Below, piece after piece: positions 1,572-61,505 of a stretch of DNA of 64,000 bases. The stretch comes from a virus, in IMG/VR virus record IMGVR_UViG_3300045988_184134; one strand, written 5' to 3'. A program made the translations under genes and the position numbers. Position 1 is the stretch's first letter. The number at the start of each line of letters is the position of its first letter. The notes beneath the pieces were generated by a model. The model was not told the DNA's origin. It was given only the letters and a program-made list of their open reading frames with translations, and did no database searches.

Positions 1572-3005
1572 TTACATCGTCGGACTTTGCGGCAGCCACT
1601 GCTGCGGATAAGAACGAAGCAGATTCTTCGGCACACAATCATTCAGTGCAGAGTTCTCAGCAAGTGCCATGTCGATGATGTAGTAATCATCACCGTTGCG
1701 CATCACATCAACACTCCACTGCCCTGTCAGCTCTACGTGCGGGATAACCTTCTTCAGCTCATCCAGAACAATCTGGACACTCTCCTTGTAGCGCTTTTCC
1801 AGCACATCCTCGTGCATCTGGTAGATAACGTAGTCGTGCCGTTCCTGCGGACTGCTCACTTCCTGGAATTTGCCCTTCATCACATCGCTGCGCCAGTAAG
1901 GACTCACTCCGAGAATTGTCTTGGCATCGAAGTCCACAAACACGCGGTATTCAGTGTGCAGCGGCAGACCGTTATAGATAGTCGGGTTTCCTTCCTTGTC
2001 TTTGATATACTCTCTGACAACCCATTCATTGGTCGTATTTGCCCCATAGAAGCAATGTCCATTGGTGGGCGCTGCCATAGAACAGGTCAGGTGGTTCAGA
2101 AACAAGAAATACTCGCCTATCTCACGGACCTCTTGCGGTTCCTGGACATGAGCATTGCGAAACTCGTACTTGGAAGAGTAGGTGCCGGTTTTGATAAAGT
2201 AGTCGCCGTCATCGTTCAGATGGAAGATTCTCTTGCAGTAACGGTTCACAATCGCCTTCGTCACGGGATTCAGCGTCTCAAAGCCGAGTCTCGTGAGTTG
2301 GAGCATCGTGATGGGCACATGTAGGAGTTTCGTCTCCGGCACCTTGAAGAACTTATTACCGTCTAAGCCTTTAACCAACGGCGGCAGCCAGTAGCTCATG
2401 GTGTTCGGATTCATTTCGAGCATCTGATATGTGATGTCATCGAGGTCCAGAATATCGAGGCCCTGGCGGAACATGTGATACTGCATCGCCTTGTTTCGGT
2501 CATTTCTCGCATCGAGATACGCCTTGTAGTGGCTGAGCAGCACCTTGTAAGATGGCTCAGAAATGTCAATCTTCATCAGATTGCCGGTCAGCTGCGGCCG
2601 AAGTTCTTCCGGGAACTTCTTGAGGTCCTCATTCGTAACCGGCGGAAGGATATGCTGGTTTGCGGAATATCGAACGTAGTAACCACCGCGTTTCGGCTCA
2701 TAGATGTACAGTCTGGTGTCATCCATCAGCTCGGCAACGATTTGGTCAATGAGATTGTCCAGCTCTTTCGTAAAAGGCACGCTCTTATCGAGCATTGCCT
2801 TTACGGTTGCGGTATCCCACTGGAGAAGATTGTCAGACAGTGTCCCACTTTCCAGCACTTGGGTTTTGTAGACATCCTCAAAGGTTTTAAGAGCATCAGG
2901 GCTTGTTTTCAGCATCGATGCAAGCTCTTCATAGGAAAACAGCTTATTTTCTTTCTTAGATAGCATTGCACCGATTTGAGCAAGCATGTCATTGAACTGA
3001 GCCAT
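1572..3005 (-). CDS. ATP-grasp-like domain protein (477 aa)
   Basis: C-terminal half has an ATP-grasp-like pattern (…TGTYSSKYEF…VREIGEYFLFLNH…WSVDVMRNGDDYYIIDMALAENS). Start overlaps the stop of 3005..3337 (ATGA). Confidence 0.45.
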   Translation of the reverse strand: MAQFNDMLAQIGAMLSKKENKLFSYEELASMLKTSPDALKTFEDVYKTQVLESGTLSDNLLQWDTATVKAMLDKSVPFTKELDNLIDQIVAELMDDTRLYIYEPKRGGYYVRYSANQHILPPVTNEDLKKFPEELRPQLTGNLMKIDISEPSYKVLLSHYKAYLDARNDRNKAMQYHMFRQGLDILDLDDITYQMLEMNPNTMSYWLPPLVKGLDGNKFFKVPETKLLHVPITMLQLTRLGFETLNPVTKAIVNRYCKRIFHLNDDGDYFIKTGTYSSKYEFRNAHVQEPQEVREIGEYFLFLNHLTCSMAAPTNGHCFYGANTTNEWVVREYIKDKEGNPTIYNGLPLHTEYRVFVDFDAKTILGVSPYWRSDVMKGKFQEVSSPQERHDYVIYQMHEDVLEKRYKESVQIVLDELKKVIPHVELTGQWSVDVMRNGDDYYIIDMALAENSALNDCVPKNLLRSYPQQWLPQSPTM

Positions 3006-3337
3006 CAGTAGCCCTCCTCATCGGGAATCTCATCTGCCGTCAGGTCTTCGTTGAAGTCCACGGTCAAATCAGCAACCGGCGCGTCCAGCTTTTTAAGGCC
3101 GAACGACTCATAGAAGCCATCAGGAATCTCGGCCGCATCACCCCAGTTGAAGTAGCCACTGTTGAGTCGCAGCGTCTTTTTGCCTTCTTCGGTATCCAGA
3201 TAAGACTTTACGGCGTTGCGTACTTGCGTGAGAACGTCATACGCTTTTTCAGAGTCATACTCAAACTGCAACATGGTCGTCTCGGTGCTGAATGGGCCGA
3301 TGATTTCGTTTGCTGCGATAGTAAAAATTTTAGTCAT
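3005..3337 (-). CDS. hypothetical acidic protein (110 aa)
   Basis: AAAGGAG RBS 8 nt before the ATG; first gene after leader/terminator module copy 1. Confidence 0.55.
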   Translation of the reverse strand: MTKIFTIAANEIIGPFSTETTMLQFEYDSEKAYDVLTQVRNAVKSYLDTEEGKKTLRLNSGYFNWGDAAEIPDGFYESFGLKKLDAPVADLTVDFNEDLTADEIPDEEGY

Positions 3338-3364: not shown

Positions 3365-3494
3365 AAAAAGAGCGGGCCTCCCGCGTGGGAAGTCCGCTCT
3401 TCAAGCGAAATTGTGAATACGAAGGGCAAGTCGCCTTTTCGATTATGTTATCTATCGTACACTTTTATCTTACGCAATTCGCATATTTTGACAA
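3365..3494 (-). promoter_or_regulatory. module copy 1 (TTGTCA-N16-TAAGAT promoter, leader, terminator) upstream of 3005..3337
   Basis: Same P1, P2 and conserved CGTATTCACAATTTCGCTT box as copy 4; terminator AGAGCGGAC…GCCCGCTCT plus U5 at 3365..3400. Confidence 0.55.
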
Positions 3495-3666: not shown

Positions 3667-4824
3667 TTACGGCTTGCAATACCCGCAAGGTGTATAGCCC
3701 TGCTCGATTAGGTCATCGCGGGAACCTGTATAGTCTTTGCGGTTTGCATCGCTCATTTGAGCTACGGCGGAGCAGTCAGGCTTATGAAATTTCATAGAGT
3801 TTGTGTTCAGGACATAGGTACTGACCGTCGTATCCTTTTGCTGTGACTCCTCGACCTCGACTGTATCGGTGGTAGTGCTTTCTGCCGCCTGGTGATATTC
3901 GCCATAAGTGAAAGTGACGTCCTTACCGTCCGATGTGCAGTAGATGTCTCCCATCTCGTCAGTTCTGAAAACCTCAATGTCTTTGCTCTGGAGCTTTGCC
4001 AAAGTGATGTCGTGTGGATGACCATAGCTGTTGTCCTTGCCACAGGAAATAACAGCATAGGCTGGATTCACTGTGTCGAGGAATGCTTCGGATGTGGAGG
4101 TTCGAGAACCATGATGCCCTACCTTCAGAACAGTAGATTGGATGTCTTGTCCAGACTGTAGGATAACATCTTCGGCAGGCTCTTCTGCATCACCCGTAAA
4201 CAAGAATGAGGTTTCTCCATATACGATGCGTAGGACAATGGAGGTATTGTTGGTATCATCCGGCACTGAGTTCACGGCGATAACAGTCACTTCGGCATCG
4301 CCAAGGGAGAATGTATCCCCTACCGACGGAATCGTAAGGCCGTTGCCTCTTTCTTCCGCTCGCTGCTTGAAGTTCCGAAAAGCTTTACTGTCGTACTCTG
4401 TGACAGGGCAATACGTGACATCAGCCGTCACGGCTTCGAATGCACCGGAAAGACCTCCGATATGGTCTTCATGGGCGTGCGTGCCAACAACATAATCCAG
4501 ATGTCCGTCTGTCTCACGTTCCAGAACAGAATATACGAGGTCAGAATCATCAACATTGCCACCGTCAATGAGCATCGAATGCCCATCACAGGTAACAAGA
4601 GCAGAGTCCGCCTGCCCCACATCAATGAAGTGGATAGTAAAGCTGCCGTCTTCCGTTACGCCAGCCGTCTGCTCGCTGTCAGAGACAGGACTTTCTGAGA
4701 CGACCCCGGATACAGGAAGACTACCCGAATCAATCGGGGTCTGACCGCAGCCTGCGAAGCTGAGGGTGAAGAGTGCCGCAATCGCTGCCGCTGCTCTCCG
4801 CAAGAATGTGTTTTTGCTTTGCAT
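3667..4824 (-). CDS. MBL-fold metallo-hydrolase lipoprotein with C-terminal Cys/His zinc-ribbon-like tail
   Basis: Lipobox LSFAGC after the signal peptide; HAHEDHIGG (HxHxDH) metallo-beta-lactamase motif; C-terminal H-K-P-x-C…C-G-Y-C-K-P motif. Confidence 0.7.
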   Translation of the reverse strand: MQSKNTFLRRAAAAIAALFTLSFAGCGQTPIDSGSLPVSGVVSESPVSDSEQTAGVTEDGSFTIHFIDVGQADSALVTCDGHSMLIDGGNVDDSDLVYSVLERETDGHLDYVVGTHAHEDHIGGLSGAFEAVTADVTYCPVTEYDSKAFRNFKQRAEERGNGLTIPSVGDTFSLGDAEVTVIAVNSVPDDTNNTSIVLRIVYGETSFLFTGDAEEPAEDVILQSGQDIQSTVLKVGHHGSRTSTSEAFLDTVNPAYAVISCGKDNSYGHPHDITLAKLQSKDIEVFRTDEMGDIYCTSDGKDVTFTYGEYHQAAESTTTDTVEVEESQQKDTTVSTYVLNTNSMKFHKPDCSAVAQMSDANRKDYTGSRDDLIEQGYTPCGYCKP

Positions 4825-4844
4825 TGGAAATTTCTCCTTTCAAA

Positions 4845-4983
4845 TAAAAAAGAGCGGGCCTACCCCGGAATGGGATAAGTCCGCTCTTAAAACAGATTGT
4901 GAACGATAGAAAATCGTAACATCTTTATGTGTTTGGTATCTATCGCACAATCAATATTGTAGTCAATTCGAAAGGAATGGCAA
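4845..4983 (-). promoter_or_regulatory. module copy 2 (TTGCCA-N16-TACAAT promoter, leader, terminator) upstream of 3667..4824
   Basis: Divergent leader that keeps P1 (GCGATAGA…TCTATCG) and CGTTCACAATCT; terminator AGAGCGGAC…GCCCGCTCT plus U6. Confidence 0.5.
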
Positions 4984-12540: not shown

Positions 12541-12634
12541 AAAAGAATACCCCGGCAGGCACGCATGGTGTTCCGCCGGGGTACAATTATTTATCTTACA
12601 ATATCAATTGTAGGCAATTCGCACAGATGGTCAA
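12541..12634 (-). promoter_or_regulatory. module copy 6, short form (TTGACC-N16-TACAAT promoter, then terminator, then RBS of the helicase)
   Basis: TGTGCGAATTG spacer motif; hairpin TACCCCGGCGG…CCGCCGGGGTA plus UUCUUUUU. Confidence 0.5.
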
Positions 12635-18064: not shown

Positions 18065-18385
18065 TTAGTCTTCGAAATTGAAGGTGAAGCCACTTTCTTT
18101 CATAGCGACAAGGCCGCCGCGCGTCTGACATTTGTTTCTATCGAGAAAGGTTTCAAGCGTCAGGCTGGTGTCCTCATTGTCCAGCCATTTGGGGCGCAGG
18201 TCGCTGATAAGGTTGTACAGTGCTGCGACAGCATGGACAATCAGTTTCTCTTCGCCCAGCATGTTTCCAATCACTTCGTCGTCGTTCTCCACAGGGACGC
18301 TGATGGAAGCCGAGAGACTTTCGAGGTTGTTGTTGTCATCGTTGCGGAATGCGGTAGCTTCGAATTTGAGAGTACAAGTGTTCAT
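18065..18385 (-). CDS. hypothetical protein (106 aa), paralogue of 17556..17876
   Basis: AAAGGAGAA RBS before the internal Met MNTCTLKFEATAF; similar terminator to the sister cassette. Confidence 0.5.
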   Translation of the reverse strand: MNTCTLKFEATAFRNDDNNNLESLSASISVPVENDDEVIGNMLGEEKLIVHAVAALYNLISDLRPKWLDNEDTSLTLETFLDRNKCQTRGGLVAMKESGFTFNFED

Positions 18386-37380: not shown

Positions 37381-37905
37381 TTATTTGTGATGGAGAGGTG
37401 CTGCTCCGAGTAATGCTGTCACATCAAACGACGATGCGTTATAGACTGTCAGCTGTTTCTCAAGCGCGTATTTCACAGTATAAGCTGTGCCGCCTGTCTG
37501 CTTCGTGCAGTAAGAAATGCAATAGTCTGAGCAATCGACCAGATGCCTGTCACGGGTCAAGTAAGCACTCTTGCTCGGCTCTTTACTGACATAGACGATT
37601 TTGTCCATCTTTTTGTCTAAGTTCTTAGCATGGAGCTGCTGTTCTGGAGTCCATCGGTCGCGGTAGCCTTCAAAAGGAAGCACCTCGATGATGCGCAGGC
37701 GGCCGTTTTCTTTCTTCAGCTCAATGAGCATCTCCGCTACGAGGGTATCGAATCCTAAAGCACCGCCTACTCCATAGTAGATAATTCCGCTCTGGATGAG
37801 TGGGATAAGCCGATGCCTTACTCTGGTTAGAATCTTTGTTTGCTCTCCCGGCGGGATGTTTCGATGCCCCGTAAAGCAGCATGTTTGCTTCTTAAATTTT
37901 CCCAT
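37381..37905 (-). CDS. SLOG-superfamily protein (DUF1273/YpsA-like)
   Basis: CCFTGHRN…GGALGFD pattern typical of YpsA/DprA-like SLOG Rossmann domains. Confidence 0.4.
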   Translation of the reverse strand: MGKFKKQTCCFTGHRNIPPGEQTKILTRVRHRLIPLIQSGIIYYGVGGALGFDTLVAEMLIELKKENGRLRIIEVLPFEGYRDRWTPEQQLHAKNLDKKMDKIVYVSKEPSKSAYLTRDRHLVDCSDYCISYCTKQTGGTAYTVKYALEKQLTVYNASSFDVTALLGAAPLHHK

Positions 37906-39044: not shown

Positions 39045-40313
39045 TTATATGCTCCCTTGTAAGTATCCGTGTGGGTGAATCGTATGGTCTGCCCTCGCGT
39101 CGCAATGCGAGAGGAGTCGGTCCTTATACATCACAGCTCGCTGTACAGAATAGTATCCAAATCGGTTTCTGACCCCATCAATGGCAGATTCTAAGCGTTC
39201 CATCTCTTCTTGCTTTTCGGCACTGAAGTCGAACGAGATTTGGCAAGGCTCCGTATCCGGCTGTAGGTCTATGGCCCGCACGCCAATGGAACGAAGATGC
39301 TCGCTCCAATGATAGTGCTTTTTATATAACGTGAACGCGGCGGTCGCTATCTCTTGCTCTTGCATTGTCGGCAGGGACAGTTTCATCTGGCGCTCGAAGC
39401 TGAATAGGTTGGAGTCCCTCAAACTCACCTCCACGCCTCGGCATCGGAAATGGTTCTCTCGGAGGCGTGCCGCGACACTCTCTGCGAGTAGGTAAAGCAC
39501 TATCCAAACATCCTGGTCGGTCTTTAAGTCCCGTGGTGTCGTCCAGCTATTTCCGATGCTCTTGATGGGAGCAAGCACCTCCCGCTGCTCGTACTTCGCC
39601 ACCGGGTCAGAGTCCAGGCCGTTGGCAAACCTCCAGAGCAAGAGTCCTACCTTGCCGAGCTTCTCCTGCAAGAACTGAGGTCTGGTCTTTGCCAAGTCTC
39701 CAATGGTATGTATAGCATAGCTATCTAACTTAGCAGCCGTTTTCTTTCCTACATATAGCAAATCCGAAGCAGGCAGCGGAAAGACTATCTTCTCGAAATT
39801 CTGTCTATTGATGACCGTAATGGCATCTGGCTTTTTGTAGTCCGAGCCGAGCTTTGCCATCGTTTTATTCCAACTGACTCCGACCGAGCAGGTAATGCCG
39901 AGTTCGTCCTTGACGGTGTCGGAGATTTTCTTTGCTATCTCCTCCCCTGTCCCAAAGAGAGACTGACTCGCGGTACAATCGAGCCAGGCTTCGTCCAAGC
40001 CAAACGGTTCGACCTGGTCGGTATAGCGCAGGAAGATTTCTCTGGTATAGCCGCTGAATCGGGTGTATAGGTCATAGTGAGCCGGAACAAAGGTGATGTC
40101 TCTGCAATGTTGCTGTGCCTCCCAAAGCGGCATACCAGTTTTCACGCCCATCCGCTTGGCCGGATACGAAGCTGTCAATACGATGCCGCTCCGCCGTTCT
40201 GGGTCACCGCATACTGCAATCGGCTTGTCCCGTAATTCAGGATGGTAGGCCATCTCACAGCTGGCATAGAAGCAGTTCATATCGCAATGAAGGACGGCTC
40301 GTTCTTTTGCCAT
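39045..40313 (-). CDS. Y-family DNA polymerase (DinB/UmuC/UvrX-like)
   Basis: MAKERAVLHCDMNCFYASCEMAYHPELRDKPIAVCGD… N-terminal signature. Start trimmed to MAK because the TGYGCGAATTG promoter motifs at 40326..40365 lie inside the longer ORF-track version. Confidence 0.85.
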   Translation of the reverse strand: MAKERAVLHCDMNCFYASCEMAYHPELRDKPIAVCGDPERRSGIVLTASYPAKRMGVKTGMPLWEAQQHCRDITFVPAHYDLYTRFSGYTREIFLRYTDQVEPFGLDEAWLDCTASQSLFGTGEEIAKKISDTVKDELGITCSVGVSWNKTMAKLGSDYKKPDAITVINRQNFEKIVFPLPASDLLYVGKKTAAKLDSYAIHTIGDLAKTRPQFLQEKLGKVGLLLWRFANGLDSDPVAKYEQREVLAPIKSIGNSWTTPRDLKTDQDVWIVLYLLAESVAARLRENHFRCRGVEVSLRDSNLFSFERQMKLSLPTMQEQEIATAAFTLYKKHYHWSEHLRSIGVRAIDLQPDTEPCQISFDFSAEKQEEMERLESAIDGVRNRFGYYSVQRAVMYKDRLLSHCDARADHTIHPHGYLQGSI

Positions 40314-40325
40314 AATATACAACCT

Positions 40326-40365
40326 CAATTCGTACAGATGGTTCCTAATTCGCATATAACAACCG
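40326..40365 (-). promoter_or_regulatory. two tandem TGYRCGAATTR motifs immediately upstream of the Y-family polymerase start
   Basis: TATGCGAATTAG and TGTACGAATTGAGG on the minus strand; -10 TATATT abuts the ATG. Confidence 0.35.
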
Positions 40366-50505: not shown

Positions 50506-51708
50506 TTAAAAGAGACTCTTCTGTTCAGCGGTGTTTGCCGCTTCCATCGCTCGCGCCTCACTCTCTTTAGCAGCATCCAACTGTTTCTGCAACTGTTCAA
50601 TTTGCTTGACCAGTGCATCCTCATTGGAGTTCTTCGTGCCGCCAAATAGCTCATTGGAGATAGAGCCTTTCAGTTCATCGTTGTATGCTTCGCCGAGACT
50701 GCGAATTGCGATGTACATAGGCAGCATCGTGTTATAGAGATTGACGATAGCAGCCACAGCAAGACTTGATGTTTCATCCGCCAGGATTCGGCCATTGTCA
50801 TCAATTTTGATGTGCTCATCGTCCATCAAGGAGAAGAAATCGCCGCGCACCACTTTGCCATCTTCACCGACCTTGGTAAAGTATAAGCTCTTGGCAACAG
50901 CACGCTGAGCTTCGGTGAATTTTTGCTTCGTAATGGTACGGTCATAAGCCGGGCTATTTGCAACACCGGCATCCAACAGGGCCAGCGTGCTCAGCATTTC
51001 GGCGGAACAAGACACGCCGTAGTTAGAGAAAGAGAACCAGTCAAAATGACCAATATCTCCATCGTCATCTTCTAACATGAGGTCATTCGTTCCAGATACC
51101 AGAACTGCATTCGTCACGAGGTCAGAGAAGTTCTTCTGGTTTGTCATACCATATTGGACAAAGAATTTCTCTTGCTCAGACAAAGGCTTTTCTGCATCTG
51201 TCTTTCGGGTCATCTGAGATAATGTGTTGCAAAGACGCGAAAAGCCCATTCGGTTCTGTTCCAGATAGCTTTCAGGACTCGCAAGCAGGAAAATGGCAAA
51301 GACTGCCACATTCCCAATCTCGCTTCCATAAAGGCCAGACATACGCTTTGCCAATTTCAGCATGCCATCTTTTTCGTTTTTATAAATTTCACTGACAAGA
51401 GAAGCGACAGAGCCATATTCTTTGCCAAACAGCATTACCAACTTTGTGTATTTGGGTGCCTTATCCGCATACAGCAAATAATAAAGGACAGCTGCGATTT
51501 TTAGTCCCTCCGTGCGCTTGGCACAAGGCAGCACAGTAACGCCATAGAAATTCCCGTCTGCAATAAGTTCTTTTGCGCAGCGACGATAGCAAAGGTTGCT
51601 CTCGTATTCTTCGATGAACCGTTTGCGAGGACCGCCCGTGTGCGTCAGGTCAGCAGCGATAATGCTGCACCACATTGGGTCAAATGGGATAGATTCGTTA
51701 TATTTCAT
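50506..51708 (-). CDS. hypothetical protein (400 aa)
   Basis: Intact ORF with a C-terminal coiled coil. Confidence 0.45.
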   Translation of the reverse strand: MKYNESIPFDPMWCSIIAADLTHTGGPRKRFIEEYESNLCYRRCAKELIADGNFYGVTVLPCAKRTEGLKIAAVLYYLLYADKAPKYTKLVMLFGKEYGSVASLVSEIYKNEKDGMLKLAKRMSGLYGSEIGNVAVFAIFLLASPESYLEQNRMGFSRLCNTLSQMTRKTDAEKPLSEQEKFFVQYGMTNQKNFSDLVTNAVLVSGTNDLMLEDDDGDIGHFDWFSFSNYGVSCSAEMLSTLALLDAGVANSPAYDRTITKQKFTEAQRAVAKSLYFTKVGEDGKVVRGDFFSLMDDEHIKIDDNGRILADETSSLAVAAIVNLYNTMLPMYIAIRSLGEAYNDELKGSISNELFGGTKNSNEDALVKQIEQLQKQLDAAKESEARAMEAANTAEQKSLF

Positions 51709-53930: not shown

Positions 53931-54112
53931 AAAAAGAGCGGGCCTCCTGACGAATCAGGAAGTCCGCTCTTGGCAGTTTGTTAAGGGTCAAAGCTCAAGC
54001 AGCCGGATTGGTTCCGGTGGACAACTTACAACATAGTAAGTTTCCAAATTGCTTGCGATAAATGGTATCCATTAACTGCTTTTTATTATAGGCAGTTCGC
54101 AAGCAGCGTCAA
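53931..54112 (-). promoter_or_regulatory. module copy 3 (TTGACG-N16-TATAAT promoter, different leader, same terminator hairpin) upstream of 53472..53795
   Basis: Terminator AGAGCGGACTTCC…GGAGGCCCGCTCT plus U6 at 53931..53970; about 130 nt more of leader before the RBS. Confidence 0.45.
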
Positions 54113-55414: not shown

Positions 55415-56560
55415 TCACAGTTCCTCCTTGCCGGGCAGGTCCACATCGCTCCAGCGAACGCGGGCGCAACGTGCAACGCAATCGGCCGCAGCAAAGAGTT
55501 TCTTGGCATCCTTTGCATGATTCCGTACCACACTGCCGTACGCATCGCAAACGGACAGATAGATGTCTGCCGCCGTGACAGACGCATTGCCGAAGATAGA
55601 GTCGTAAGCTGCAAATGCTTCTGCTGCTTCAGCTTTCGGCATGCCGCCGCTCTTCAAAACGCGGACGAGAGCAGCTTTGCCGTTCTTCACCTCGATGGTT
55701 TGAAGCTTGCTGATGTCAGTGCTCGCATCATCGAAGTAGGCCAGCAGCGCGGTAAACGCATTGGTAACGCGCCCTTTGATGTCTTCGCCGATATGAGGGA
55801 TAGCAACATCCTTCGCCATAGGCACAACGATACCGCCGCCCATATCAAGGCACGGAATCAGGCGCACAGCGGACGCCGCGACATCCGAGCTAATCATTTG
55901 CACCGCAGGGCTGTATCCGCTGCAGAATTCAGCGGGCAACTTGCGGAAGAACTGGGCCTTGTACGCATCAAGACCGACTACGACGCTCATCATCTCATGG
56001 GACACATACCCGCTCACCATCTCGCGTTCGGGCCAGTTGGTCCGCATGTAGCTGTTCATAATCTCCAGCAGCTCGGCGTTGCTGATGTCGGCGTAGCGGG
56101 CAGAATGCACTGCGCGAATCTTTTCGTGGCTGAATTTGACACGAATCGAGCCCTGGCGTTCTGCCAGAATCAGGTTCAGGACTTCTTTGAGGCTGCCGCG
56201 ATTGTTCTTTCGCAGCAGTTCATAGCAGTTGAGACCAATCATGCCACGGTCGCAGATGCTCCGAATAGCGCTGTCCCCTACCGGCTTGGTTCCGATAGAA
56301 GTCGTGAGATTCAGCCCGGCATGTTCCTGTGTGTCGATGACCGCATCAGTGCTGACCTTCAGGTGCTTTGCATACTCGGGAGCGCAGAGCGGCTCATCAT
56401 AGCTTGCTTCGAAGCGAACATCACGGATGCCCTCATCGAGCCACTGGGTTTGGTTTGCATCCTCTTTGCAGAACTCAACAAGCTCATCAAGCTGGCCGAA
56501 ATCAAAGAACTTCTCGGCACCATCGAGGACGAAATTGGGGGTTTTAGCTGTGTTGGACAT
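55415..56560 (-). CDS. hypothetical protein (381 aa); candidate recombination partner of the exonuclease
   Basis: AAAAAGGAGAA-TGTAAT-ATG; directly upstream of the YqaJ-like gene; driven by module copy 4. Confidence 0.45.
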   Translation of the reverse strand: MSNTAKTPNFVLDGAEKFFDFGQLDELVEFCKEDANQTQWLDEGIRDVRFEASYDEPLCAPEYAKHLKVSTDAVIDTQEHAGLNLTTSIGTKPVGDSAIRSICDRGMIGLNCYELLRKNNRGSLKEVLNLILAERQGSIRVKFSHEKIRAVHSARYADISNAELLEIMNSYMRTNWPEREMVSGYVSHEMMSVVVGLDAYKAQFFRKLPAEFCSGYSPAVQMISSDVAASAVRLIPCLDMGGGIVVPMAKDVAIPHIGEDIKGRVTNAFTALLAYFDDASTDISKLQTIEVKNGKAALVRVLKSGGMPKAEAAEAFAAYDSIFGNASVTAADIYLSVCDAYGSVVRNHAKDAKKLFAAADCVARCARVRWSDVDLPGKEEL

Positions 56561-56584: not shown

Positions 56585-56719
56585 AAAAAGGCGGACCCCC
56601 GAAAATTTCGGAAGGTCCGCCTAAAAGCGAAATTGTGAATACGAAGGGCGCTTTGCCTTTTCGATAACTGTTATCTATCGTACAACTACCATTGTATTCA
56701 CTTCGCACAGCTGTGCAAG
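56585..56719 (-). promoter_or_regulatory. module copy 4: promoter (TTGCAC-N17-TACAAT), conserved structured leader, intrinsic terminator, then RBS of 55415..56560
   Basis: On the minus strand: TTGCACAGCTGTGCGAAGTGAATACAAT; P1 CGATAGATAAC…ATCG; P2 AAGGC-AAAGC-GCCCTT; box CGTATTCACAATTTCGCTT; hairpin GGCGGACC…GGTCCGCC plus U5; AAAAAGGAGAA; ATG. Confidence 0.55.
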
Positions 56720-60428: not shown

Positions 60429-61331
60429 TTAGAGGTTGTACTGTCCCGCAATCAGGCGAGCGGCAGCCTGAATCGGTTTACCGTTGTACTGAGGCCGCAG
60501 GAAGTAGGTGATGGCCCCACCGTTACCGGAGTCCATCATTTCCTTCATGGTCTGCCCAGCAAAACGACCAGCCATAACTTTGAACGCCAGAGCTTTTTCA
60601 AGCGTCATAGGCTCATTGTCGGGAGTCGGATTTGCAGCCGGGACAGGCGGAACAGGGAAAGTGTTCTGAACAGGCGCAGCGACAGGCTTTACAGGTTCAT
60701 CCACTTTTTCTTCAACCTGAGTCGGAGCCGCTTTCGGTGCAGCTTTTTTGACGGTCTTCTTTGCAGCAGGTACATCAGTCTTGGGGTCGGTCTCTTTTTC
60801 CTTCTCCTTGACCTTGTCCTGAAGCTGCTGCGGCACAGGTGGCACCGGGAAATTCGTCAAAACGCCGCCGTCAACGGGGGCATCCGGCAAATCGGCCGTT
60901 GTCTTGTACACGGTAGTGACATCTTCGATGTACTCAGCGTCCGCCGGGGTGCCAAATCCGCAGTTGCCGAGGGCTTTGCGAATCGCGGCCGTACCGGCGT
61001 TCTGGATGTAGTCCTTGCCGAACTGGTCATCGCTGTGATAGCGGGTGGCGAAAGCGTTCGCCAAAAGGTTGCCATTTTCGTCGATGACGCGGCCCTCGAC
61101 CGTTGCCATCTGGTCATTGGCCCGATAGACAATCTGTTCCAAGCGCCCGCCGGGGTGCTTCAGTCGGAACCACAGCATAGCAGGCTCTGCCTGGAGATAC
61201 ATGCGGTTGTTACCTTCCGCATCCTGAAAGCAGGACGTTACCAGGCGGGGGTCAAAACCATCTACTGCATTGACATTAGCCATTGCCGTGAGAGTCTTCT
61301 TCTGGGCATCTTTGATTGTTTCTTTGGTCAT
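60429..61331 (-). CDS. possible Rad52/Sak-like single-strand annealing protein with Pro/Lys-rich linker
   Basis: …GRVIDENGNLLANAFATRY…QNAGTAAIRKALGNCGFG resembles the Rad52 …[20 protein letters not shown] region; weak. Confidence 0.4.
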   Translation of the reverse strand: MTKETIKDAQKKTLTAMANVNAVDGFDPRLVTSCFQDAEGNNRMYLQAEPAMLWFRLKHPGGRLEQIVYRANDQMATVEGRVIDENGNLLANAFATRYHSDDQFGKDYIQNAGTAAIRKALGNCGFGTPADAEYIEDVTTVYKTTADLPDAPVDGGVLTNFPVPPVPQQLQDKVKEKEKETDPKTDVPAAKKTVKKAAPKAAPTQVEEKVDEPVKPVAAPVQNTFPVPPVPAANPTPDNEPMTLEKALAFKVMAGRFAGQTMKEMMDSGNGGAITYFLRPQYNGKPIQAAARLIAGQYNL

Positions 61332-61370: not shown

Positions 61371-61505
61371 CAAAAAGAGCGAACCTCCCATAATAGGAAG
61401 TCTGCTCTTTAAGCGAAATTGTGAATACGCAGGGCTTTCGCCTTTTCGATTGTTATGGTATCTATCGTACAACTATCATTGTATCCACTTCGCACAAATG
61501 TGCAA
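61371..61505 (-). promoter_or_regulatory. module copy 5 (TTGCAC-N16-TACAAT promoter, leader, terminator) upstream of 60429..61331
   Basis: P1; P2 with a GAAA loop (AAGGC-GAAA-GCCCTG); conserved box; terminator AGAGCAGAC…GTTCGCTCT plus U5. Confidence 0.55.

Follow-up and report, generated by a model that had tools for sequence, protein, structure and literature searches.

In the N/nut system of phage lambda, a short RNA that combines a hairpin domain with a conserved single-stranded box lies between promoter and terminator, and this mobile-element RNA is repeated at each early transcription unit. The same features are found in a promoter-leader-terminator cassette that recurs in a 64,000-nt stretch of the virus record IMGVR_UViG_3300045988_184134 (the window, meaning the whole stretch that was analysed). 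The copy considered here, copy 2, lies on the minus strand ahead of a gene for a predicted lipoprotein of the metallo-beta-lactamase (MBL) fold. The cassette differs from nut in showing no visible sequence similarity to boxA or boxB, in its number (tens of copies, compared with two in lambda), in an RNA that begins at +1 with a paired 5' end, and in a terminator that follows the box after 8–16 nt and is complementary to the intervening linker. A different kind of precedent is provided by phage SPbeta, in which MrpR binds the 15-bp SPBRE at about ten promoter regions (PMC10516654). As with the cassette, an element present at ~10 promoter and leader regions of a large temperate phage places many operons under one regulator, and SPBRE often lies between the start site and the ribosome-binding site. 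SPBRE is, however, a partly palindromic DNA operator (ATACA-N7-TGTAT) of unrelated sequence, with no hairpin covariation and no terminator. The MrpR-type repressor has a tyrosine-recombinase fold, and no regulator of the Phage_integrase fold was seen in the window.

Cis-acting RNAs that carry transcription past intrinsic terminators are also known from Firmicute mobile elements whose genes are silent by default, namely canT of Tn916 (PMC11658703) and conAn of pLS20 (PMC8191782), an arrangement that the cassette would share. These RNAs are 341–452 nt (canT) or large (conAn), single-copy and processive over a long operon, and conAn additionally requires the ConAn1 protein (PMC8191782), whereas the cassette places a domain of ~55 nt before each operon, each with its own terminator. 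In the zipper attenuator cATT of pLS20 (PMC13401043), as in classical attenuators such as the protein-dependent RAT and ANTAR leaders and potentially in the cassette, the 5' arm of the terminator can alternatively pair with an upstream segment; in cATT this segment lies upstream of a long stem, which the pairing extends into an antiterminator. The cassette is not a zipper in this sense, as nothing lies upstream of its closing helix, P1, and the minimum free energy and centroid folds are without such pairing. Its alternative helix would be a local hairpin of 5–6 bp formed by the linker downstream of the box only, and to our knowledge it carries no RAT or ANTAR consensus. Nothing equivalent was encountered in Rfam or in the literature searched. 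Rfam 15 returned nothing at gathering thresholds over the whole window, E-value mode gave only sub-threshold noise for copies 2 and C (L20_leader at 23.1 bits against a threshold of 58.7, and WLE3), the motif sequence was absent from the literature searched, and a megablast of window positions 1–25000 against plasmids and phages gave no match. Within the known kind of leader-terminator attenuation or antitermination, the cassette is best regarded as a new family. Three of its features are unusual, namely the number of copies carried by each element, the attachment to the transcript 5' end and boxes that do not vary.

Copy 2 is a genuine, divergent and structurally rebuilt member of this family. 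A covariance model of the whole leader (R1), built from 18 copies of which none came from the window, scored it at 43.4 bits (E 3.4e-7), the third-best match in the window; a model restricted to the 5' domain (R2), from 25 non-window seeds, gave 22.9 bits (E about 0.007) over a background of at most 15 bits throughout. Both scores agree with the first-pass annotation, made from the letters alone, which had described the locus as a divergent copy of a repeated module. The promoter proposed there (TTGCCA-N16-TACAAT) was also recovered in a consensus scan, the terminator of the shared family followed by a ribosome-binding site and ATG is present at 4887–4822, and the position upstream of an MBL-fold lipoprotein gene is confirmed by the Lactamase_B match and lipobox of that gene (Table 1). 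We read copy 2 as a sense-strand, cis-acting leader that would act as a conditional transcription attenuator, and put the probability of this reading at about 0.5. Its central proposition, that the RNA governs whether polymerase passes the terminator it carries, is indicated by the compensatory changes in helix P3 and in the terminator, by G-U pairs on the sense strand, by the variable spacing of the P1 strands, by the rebuilding of closing helices and by an obligatory terminator.

The copy 2 promoter can be written TTGCCA-N5-TTCGAA-N5-TACAAT-N6-TGTGCG, with spacing identical to that of the family promoter. Its spacer motif TTCGAA (4972–4967) has one mismatch to the family TGCGAA, and the segment ATTGAT separates the -10 element from the 5' motif, which agrees with the family UGUACGAUAGAUA(A/C)C at 14 of 15 positions, the difference being the minor allele G in place of A4. 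As DNA, the strands of the copy 2 helix are GCGATAGA (4946–4939) and TCTATCGT (4910–4903), which form 8 bp with an outermost G-U pair and enclose a mini-hairpin, ACAU-AAAG-AUGU (4930–4919); U1 and G2 could pair in addition with the CA of the box according to RNA folding. The sequence CGTTCACAATCT is located at 4905–4894. The terminator (AGAGCGGACUU...CCGCUCU plus U6; AGAGCGGAC...GCCCGCTCT plus T6 as DNA, 4887–4846) begins 8 nt past the box, and AAGGAG and ATG come next. The predicted folding energy of the whole leader is -37.5 kcal/mol (z = -5.45), equalled by none of 200 shuffled sequences, and that of the 5' hairpin alone is -12.1 kcal/mol (z = -3.1), equalled by one of 200. A leader peptide of 11 codons (ATG...TAA, MLRFSIVHNLF, 4922–4887 on the minus strand) was considered and rejected, as it has no Shine-Dalgarno sequence and canonical leaders have no start codon; this reading frame (AUG UUA CGA ... 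UUU UAA) is probably fortuitous.

Copy 2 was first described as keeping P1 and having a degenerate box, and the reverse is found. The canonical P1 3' strand, UCGUACA(A), which normally precedes the box, is absent, as is P3, and the box core TTCACAAT is intact. In place of P1, GCGAUAGA pairs with a new strand, UCUAUCGU. Both R1 and R2 align this helix, CGAUAGA/UCUAUCG, to the family P1 positions, but it is distinct from canonical P1: its register is shifted by 3 nt into the 5' motif and it absorbs what is usually the 5' strand of helix P2. The insert that the helix was said to enclose is long only by one comparison. From first base to box copy 2 measures 54 nt, within the 52–59 nt of canonical copies, and is longer than a short form of 36 nt, UGUACGAUAGAUACC-AGAUAUCUUACAA-UUCACAAU, that precedes MBL genes of related elements. 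The terminator (AGCGGACUUAUCCC...) and ribosome-binding region (UUUUUUAUUUGAAAGGAGAA) of these short orthologous leaders nearly match those of copy 2, which therefore arose by replacement of a 13-nt segment with one of 31 nt. The long form is itself common, preceding an identical MBL protein on contigs of 210–244 kb from several studies. As an outgroup for covariation, the use first suggested for it, copy 2 is of limited value. Its close relatives are nearly identical, and the sole variable stem position among them is base 4, which is A in five of six near-identical metagenome copies and G in the window and one other contig, giving an A-U or a G-U pair. What copy 2 does show, at the level of predicted pairing, is that a closing helix beside the box is retained even where its sequence has been replaced. 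A second, unrelated lineage has the same topology, with GAUAG pairing CUAUC (UGAACGAUAGAUACC...CUAUCAUUCACAUU), and there a U-to-A change allows UGAA to pair with UUCA of the box. All three forms, canonical, short and rebuilt, keep the promoter, the 5' motif, a closing helix at the extreme 5' end that adjoins the box, the box itself and the terminator. Copy 2 is a natural experiment in which the closing helix has been remade while the 5' motif, box and terminator were kept, and it points to the features under selection.

In order of transcription, the cassette consists of a sigma-A-type promoter with TGCGAA, the 5' motif UGUACGAUAGAUA, P1, P3, the box UUCACAAU, a linker, a terminator, a ribosome-binding site and the gene, and the position of the leader relative to promoter and gene is constant. 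A position matrix of 97 unique upstream regions shows that TTGcc, TGCGAA and TAnAAT each keep a constant distance to the leader. With 6 nt between the end of the -10 element and the leader, transcription is predicted to begin with U1 of UGUACGAUAGAUA or no more than about 2 nt from it. Among 101 distinct top covariance-model matches, the first 13 nt of the leader are invariant. Canonical P1, UGUACGA/UCGUACA, includes the first transcribed base; because it almost never varies, covariation neither supports nor contradicts it, and one lineage (L037) has a C-G to U-A exchange inside it. The box, (A)AUUCACAAU, lies directly 3' of P1 with 88–100% identity per column. Near-invariance of this kind is also explicable by contact between protein and DNA, and the main rival explanation is that the invariant block TGTACGATAGATA (+1 to +13), perhaps together with TTCACAAT and TGCGAA, consists of DNA operators at which a master repressor silences dozens of promoters together, the hairpins and terminator being secondary. 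The block is asymmetric, sits exactly at the start site and is always oriented with transcription. Repeated operators have precedents in the stoperators of mycobacteriophage L5 and the conserved inverted repeats of phiC31. They are the norm in large temperate phages, MrpR acting at ~10 SPbeta promoter regions (PMC10516654), and SPBRE (CAAATACAAAnAATATGTAT) occupies an equivalent position just past the yopV and yonX promoters.

The remainder of the 5' domain behaves differently. P3, a hairpin stacked on P1, shows compensatory changes at all four of its pairs (e.g., CG 60, AU 20, GU 7), and the terminator helix does so at 7 of 12; this is the support for structural covariation that the first-pass annotation had expected a structure-aware alignment with further homologues to reveal or deny. 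Alignment with MAFFT followed by RNAalifold missed P3, since the variable region was misaligned, and alignment to the covariance model recovered it. Overall, 95.9% of cells are paired, compared with 40–50% when partners are slid by 1–3 columns. A loose helix, P2, is formed by AUAGAUA with a nearby complement of 4–5 nt whose register differs among subtypes; P2 as a fixed helix was rejected, with 37 and 17 of the 101 sequences unpaired at two of its pairs, and in canonical copies P1, P2 and P3 are predicted to form a three-way junction. G-U pairs are frequent on the sense strand (GU in 47/101 at pair 33–62, UG in 84/101 at pair 106–130), and since each would become an A-C mismatch on the opposite strand, it is the sense strand that is structured. 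Single-stranded DNA promoter, attC-like and miniature inverted-repeat transposable element readings were dropped, given the ordinary duplex promoter, the constant gene orientation and G-U pairs indicative of RNA. A DNA operator leaves the P3 changes and the G-U pairs unexplained, as it does the differing distance between the TGTACGA and TCGTACA repeats (48–59 nt from first base to box end), the rebuilt closing helices of copy 2 and the second lineage, and the obligatory terminator, as SPBRE leaders run directly to the ribosome-binding site. We hold the operator explanation to be unlikely, and DNA-level and RNA-level recognition could coexist.

A hairpin with a U-tract lies 8–16 nt after the box in all 114 unique copies (-14 to -26 kcal/mol, U5-7), and in most copies a ribosome-binding site and start codon follow 15–45 nt past it. 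An obligatory strong terminator thus sits between a good promoter and the ribosome-binding site, and it is not simply the end of the previous operon, since many units have an upstream terminator of their own. The 5' arm of the terminator, GC(G/A)GACU, is conserved beyond the needs of pairing: one A (e.g., window 4880, minus strand; alignment column 104 versus 132) is 98% conserved while the opposite base is U in 54% and C in 46%, and as the mismatch is tolerated while the A is kept, the arm appears to be recognised as sequence and not as a stem alone. Pairing with GCGGA or GCAGA of this arm is possible for the first five nucleotides of the linker, which read UUCGC, UCUGC or UCUGU. The longest linker-arm helix averages 5.2 bp versus 4.0 bp for shuffled linkers, and on the model alignment 86% of cells can pair, compared with 17–58% when slid by 1–3 columns. 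One linker-arm pair varies (CG 37, UA 27, UG 15); UUCG linkers occur with GCGGA arms in 60 cases and with GCAGA arms in 3, and UCUG linkers are found with both. These data are suggestive of a competition between antiterminator and terminator. In copy 2, the last U of the box together with the linker, UCUGU, could pair with GCGGA of the terminator arm as a candidate antiterminator of 5 bp, two of them G-U.

A terminator in this position bears on two further explanations. The folded 5' domain could by itself be a processive antiterminator, as are put of phage HK022, EAR of the B. subtilis eps operon and canT of Tn916. It would bind its own polymerase and make it resistant to terminators, such that only transcripts from cassette promoters pass the next terminator and any internal ones. 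This would accommodate a structured RNA placed right after the promoter and ahead of a terminator, a box-terminator distance that varies, as a processive mechanism tolerates, and the terminators with no evident promoter inside gene arrays of the window, and precedents exist in Gram-positive mobile elements in canT (PMC11658703) and conAn (PMC8191782). These are a 341–452-nt RNA and a large RNA present once per element, however, where the cassette has ~55 nt before each operon; constitutive antitermination would leave the post-promoter terminator without evident purpose, transcripts reading in from upstream would also contain the RNA, and the complementarity of linker and terminator arm would be unexplained, all of which makes this explanation improbable. 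Somewhat less probable still is the absence of any switch, with the 5' hairpin stabilising the RNA and a leaky terminator fixing low expression, or with the ~100-nt RNA acting in trans. A paired 5' end is the classical arrangement of 5' stabilisers in Firmicutes, and the extreme 5' end is always base-paired here; a promoter, about 100 nt and a terminator likewise match the anatomy of a small-RNA gene. A stabiliser or dimmer would have no need of the invariant single-stranded UUCACAAU and GAUAGAUAMC, the terminators are strong (energies and U-tracts as above) where a leaky one is supposed, and the dozens of copies differ in P3 sequence, which does not suit an RNA acting in trans.

The distribution of the cassette bears on the nature of the effector. 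Searches of IMG/VR with the two-box pattern gave at least 120 loci on contigs of 30–390 kb, often with 2–4 copies within a few kb, and these yielded 78 distinct 5' domains after removal of a group of coding false positives. R1 made 249 matches at E <=0.01 in 864 kb of collected sequence, and more than 250 copies are present in public contigs of 30–390 kb that IMG/VR classes as viral. In a scan of one genome per species (185,579 representatives), matches fell in contigs of Clostridiales/Eubacteriales metagenome-assembled genomes, most of them in HRGM_Genome_2451; six more matches in unrelated taxa, which were left uninspected, were taken as chance. This confinement argues against a general metabolite sensor. 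An ON-type small-molecule riboswitch with the antiterminator helix as expression platform would fit an RNA in which stems that covary or may be missing surround invariant nucleotides of junction and loops, and the possible antiterminator/terminator pair. It is nevertheless the least probable of the explanations considered, and very improbable: the cassette was found only in this element family and not in the bacterial chromosomes of the species representatives, the downstream genes are functionally unrelated, there are many copies per element, no Rfam family matches, and a dispensable P3 and a P1 rebuilt in another register would be unusual for a ligand pocket. With many unrelated operons behind it and a distribution limited to a single element family, the cassette is more likely to respond to a factor of the element than to a metabolite.

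Under the attenuator reading, the sigma-A-type promoter would initiate RNA at, or about 2 nt from, UGUGCGAUAGAUA, and the RNA 5' end would be sealed at once in a hairpin, or in canonical copies in the P1/P2/P3 three-way junction, whose 3' strand adjoins the invariant single-stranded box UUCACAAU. The sealing of this end is a consistent feature, with P1 running from base 1 in canonical copies and a closing helix rebuilt in two independent lineages. By default, polymerase would be stopped in vivo at the strong intrinsic terminator 8–16 nt downstream, giving an RNA of ~100 nt and leaving the MBL lipoprotein gene off. For read-through, the invariant nucleotides would have to be recognised by a factor acting in trans, most plausibly a protein that the element itself encodes. 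Such a factor might stabilise the helix of 5–6 bp between the linker and the terminator 5' arm (GCRGA), or it might load onto polymerase as lambda N does at the nut site. As the same cassette precedes each of them, many unrelated operons would be switched on together. The cassette precedes many operons of a large, very common, uncultivated mobile element of the human gut and probably gates their transcription. A stronger proposal is made tentatively, as we consider it possible but less probable than attenuation as such. The cassette would be the cis signal of a novel antitermination regulon that spans the whole element, nut-like and based on a new class of RNA, and an element protein would read it so that termination near the promoter gives way to read-through. 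If it is true, a 5'-anchored RNA of ~55 nt (UGUACGAUAGAUA, a hairpin and UUCACAAU) stands before tens of operons of a ~240-kb element, a nut-like system at a scale undescribed for any phage or plasmid. On the attenuator reading itself, if it is right, a single short RNA signal would control the majority of the transcription units in a large and very common element. The cassette would then supply a new and well-defined candidate RNA family that has hundreds of members, obvious invariant positions and stems that covary, give a handle on the regulator and on the on/off state of the element in metatranscriptomes, and yield a compact promoter-leader-terminator part for tight gene control in Clostridia.

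Several observations weigh against the attenuator reading. Set against terminators of -14 to -26 kcal/mol, the linker-arm helix has few pairs and little strength, and its support comes from one covarying position, possibly reflecting shared descent, with both strands conserved. P1, the 5' motif and the box hardly vary, and their conservation fits recognition at the DNA level equally. Pfam and PHROGs searches of about 70 open reading frames (ORFs) of the window revealed no RNA-binding or antiterminator domain, and phmmer searches of 10,842 ORFs of element fragments with NusG, RfaH, lambda N and lambda Q gave no match. No NusG paralogue (NGN/KOW) was found in the element fragments with E. coli NusG or RfaH as query, or in the Pfam scans of the window ORFs; N-like proteins are short and fast-evolving. 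The same promoter also precedes leaders that have a terminator and no module, and leaders without a terminator, and whatever overcomes termination may therefore not depend on the module RNA.

A further explanation is a Q-type control acting on DNA, in which a Q-like protein at TGCGAA, with a sigma-dependent pause at the -10-like TACGAT (+3 to +8), would make polymerase resistant to terminators. The lambda Q-binding element is positioned between -35 and -10, and the cassette promoter has a conserved hexamer there; a TAnnnT hexamer lies within the initially transcribed region, the terminator is about 100 nt downstream, and the promoter type also stands before module-less leaders with terminators. 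In the collected sequence TGCGAA-type promoters precede 225 distinct leaders, of which 139 carry the 5' motif and about 48 lack it but have a terminator-like signal within 200 nt (some of these being coding sequence and some having a divergent motif; the leaders starting at 12606, 23452 and 418 are real examples from the window). About 35 of the 225 unique leaders have no terminator, which a Q-type mechanism would not lead one to expect; it also leaves P1 and P3 unexplained, no Q homologue was found by phmmer in the ORFs of element fragments, and sigma-dependent pausing is an assumption for this host. We regard it as distinctly improbable, less so only than the riboswitch.

In the window the promoter takes the special form TTGnnn-N5/6-(G/T)TGCGAA-N5-TAnAAT, with the conserved hexamer inside the spacer, and serves module leaders, leaders with other terminators and leaders with none. 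This form may be the signature of an activator, a repressor or a sigma specificity that belongs to the element. Among about 70 window ORFs screened with Pfam and PHROGs, a single gene was recognised as regulator-like; its product has Mor and helix-turn-helix (HTH) domains and is a candidate for reading the conserved promoter or the 5' motif. Two tandem paralogous genes of 106 aa, at 18385–18065 and 17876–17556 on the minus strand, each have their own TGCGAA promoter and their own downstream terminator, with no leader terminator; since both escape attenuation, they are candidate early or regulatory products, and neither has a Pfam match.

Table 1. Coordinates of copy 2, its relatives and neighbouring features in the window
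Feature	Position	Strand	Basis and remarks
Copy 2 leader module	4983..4822	minus	all features named in the first-pass annotation located here in the sequence
Copy 2 promoter	4956..4983	minus	-35 TTGCCA 4983–4978, 16-nt spacer, -10 TACAAT 4961–4956; sequence and consensus scan
Copy 2 5' motif UGUGCGAUAGAUACC	4935..4949	minus	at predicted transcript start; sequence and family alignment
Copy 2 re-registered closing hairpin	4903..4946	minus	GCGAUAGA (4946–4939) pairs UCUAUCGU (4910–4903); RNA folding and R1/R2 alignment
Copy 2 box UUCACAAU	4896..4903	minus	intact, 8/8 match; predicted largely single-stranded; UCUAUCGUUCACAAU precedes the linker in the leader
Copy 2 linker CUGUUUUA	4888..4895	minus	family analysis
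Copy 2 intrinsic terminator AGAGCGGACUUAUCCC-AUUCC-GGGGUAGGCCCGCUCU + U6	4846..4887	minus	folding; dG -22.6 kcal/mol
Copy 2 ribosome-binding region GAAAGGAG / GAAAGGAGAAATTTCCAATG	4822..4841	minus	AAGGAG 4839–4834; ATG 4824–4822; string AUUUGAAAGGAGAAAUUUCCA-AUG
MBL-fold predicted lipoprotein, 385 aa	3667..4824	minus	Pfam Lactamase_B, E 4e-20; lipobox LSFAGC
Canonical copy A	3366..3494	minus	precedes 110-aa ORF 3005–3337; R1 53.8 bits, R2 37.8 bits
Canonical copy C	56585..56718	minus	precedes 381-aa ORF 55415–56560; R1 53.7 bits, R2 41.5 bits
Canonical copy D	61373..61505	minus	precedes 300-aa ORF 60429–61331; R1 40.0 bits, R2 27.5 bits
Short-form copy E, without P3	51732..51836	minus	precedes 400-aa ORF 50506–51708; R2 16.1 bits
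Derived relative	53932..54112	minus	shares promoter type and terminator family; longer leader, no canonical 5' motif; R1 32.8 bits, E 6.6e-5
Degenerate short relative UGUA...UAC-UAAUCACAUU + terminator	1059–994	minus	directly upstream of promoter at 995; R1 19.6 bits
Module-less leaders with 5'-motif look-alikes UGUAAGAUAAAUAA, UGUAAGCUAAAUAA, UGUAAACCAAAAAG	12606–12540, 23452–23400, 418–358	minus	intrinsic terminator within about 60 nt in each
TGCGAA-type promoters, at least 16 (-35 starts)	61505, 58108, 56718, 54112, 51836, 35249, 24169, 23480, 18460, 17950, 17481, 12634, 4983, 3494, 995, 446; also 28116	minus	
Mor/HTH protein, 266 aa	8883–9683	minus	Mor activator domain and second HTH / sigma-70 region-4-like domain
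SPbeta homologues	37381–37905, 39045–40355	minus	YpsA-like YoqJ; Y-family polymerase, annotated yolE

The window holds at least five copies of the cassette, plus two degenerate ones (Table 1). The sister copies, all on the minus strand, were found through a search for the terminator arm and then as direct repeats, and the two-box pattern ATTGTGAA-N10-40-TATCTATSSYACA has five matches in the window versus none in 100 shuffled sequences. With the module-less leaders included, promoter-proximal termination seems to be a general habit of the element. Nearly all genes of the window lie on the minus strand, in repeated units of terminator, promoter, leader, terminator and genes.

The MBL lipoprotein has in addition a faint match to Anti-Pycsar_Apyc1 in its Pfam list and a Cys-rich motif at its C terminus, KPDC...CGYCKP. 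The exact protein is present in 659 blocks of a public assembly collection, repeatedly on contigs of about 210–245 kb and in three blocks on contigs of more than 1 Mb; the element is thus very prevalent and may occur both free and integrated. IMG/VR classes the contigs as viral, the window showed neither a capsid nor a terminase gene, and the element may be a phage, a plasmid or an integrative element. Most proteins of the window belong to no known family, and the functions of nearly all element proteins are unassigned; recognisable are a Y-family polymerase, a UvrD-like helicase, YqaJ, a sortase, a signal peptidase, a YpsA-like SLOG protein, and MazG-like and metallophosphatase proteins. A description of the element as SPbeta-like was not adopted, as only two ORFs of the window match SPbeta; the SPbeta polymerase annotated yolE is presumably UvrX. 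Homologues of a 477-aa ORF at 1572–3005 are present both in Staphylococcus phages that bear the name 'SPbeta-like' and in a phage of Clostridium innocuum.

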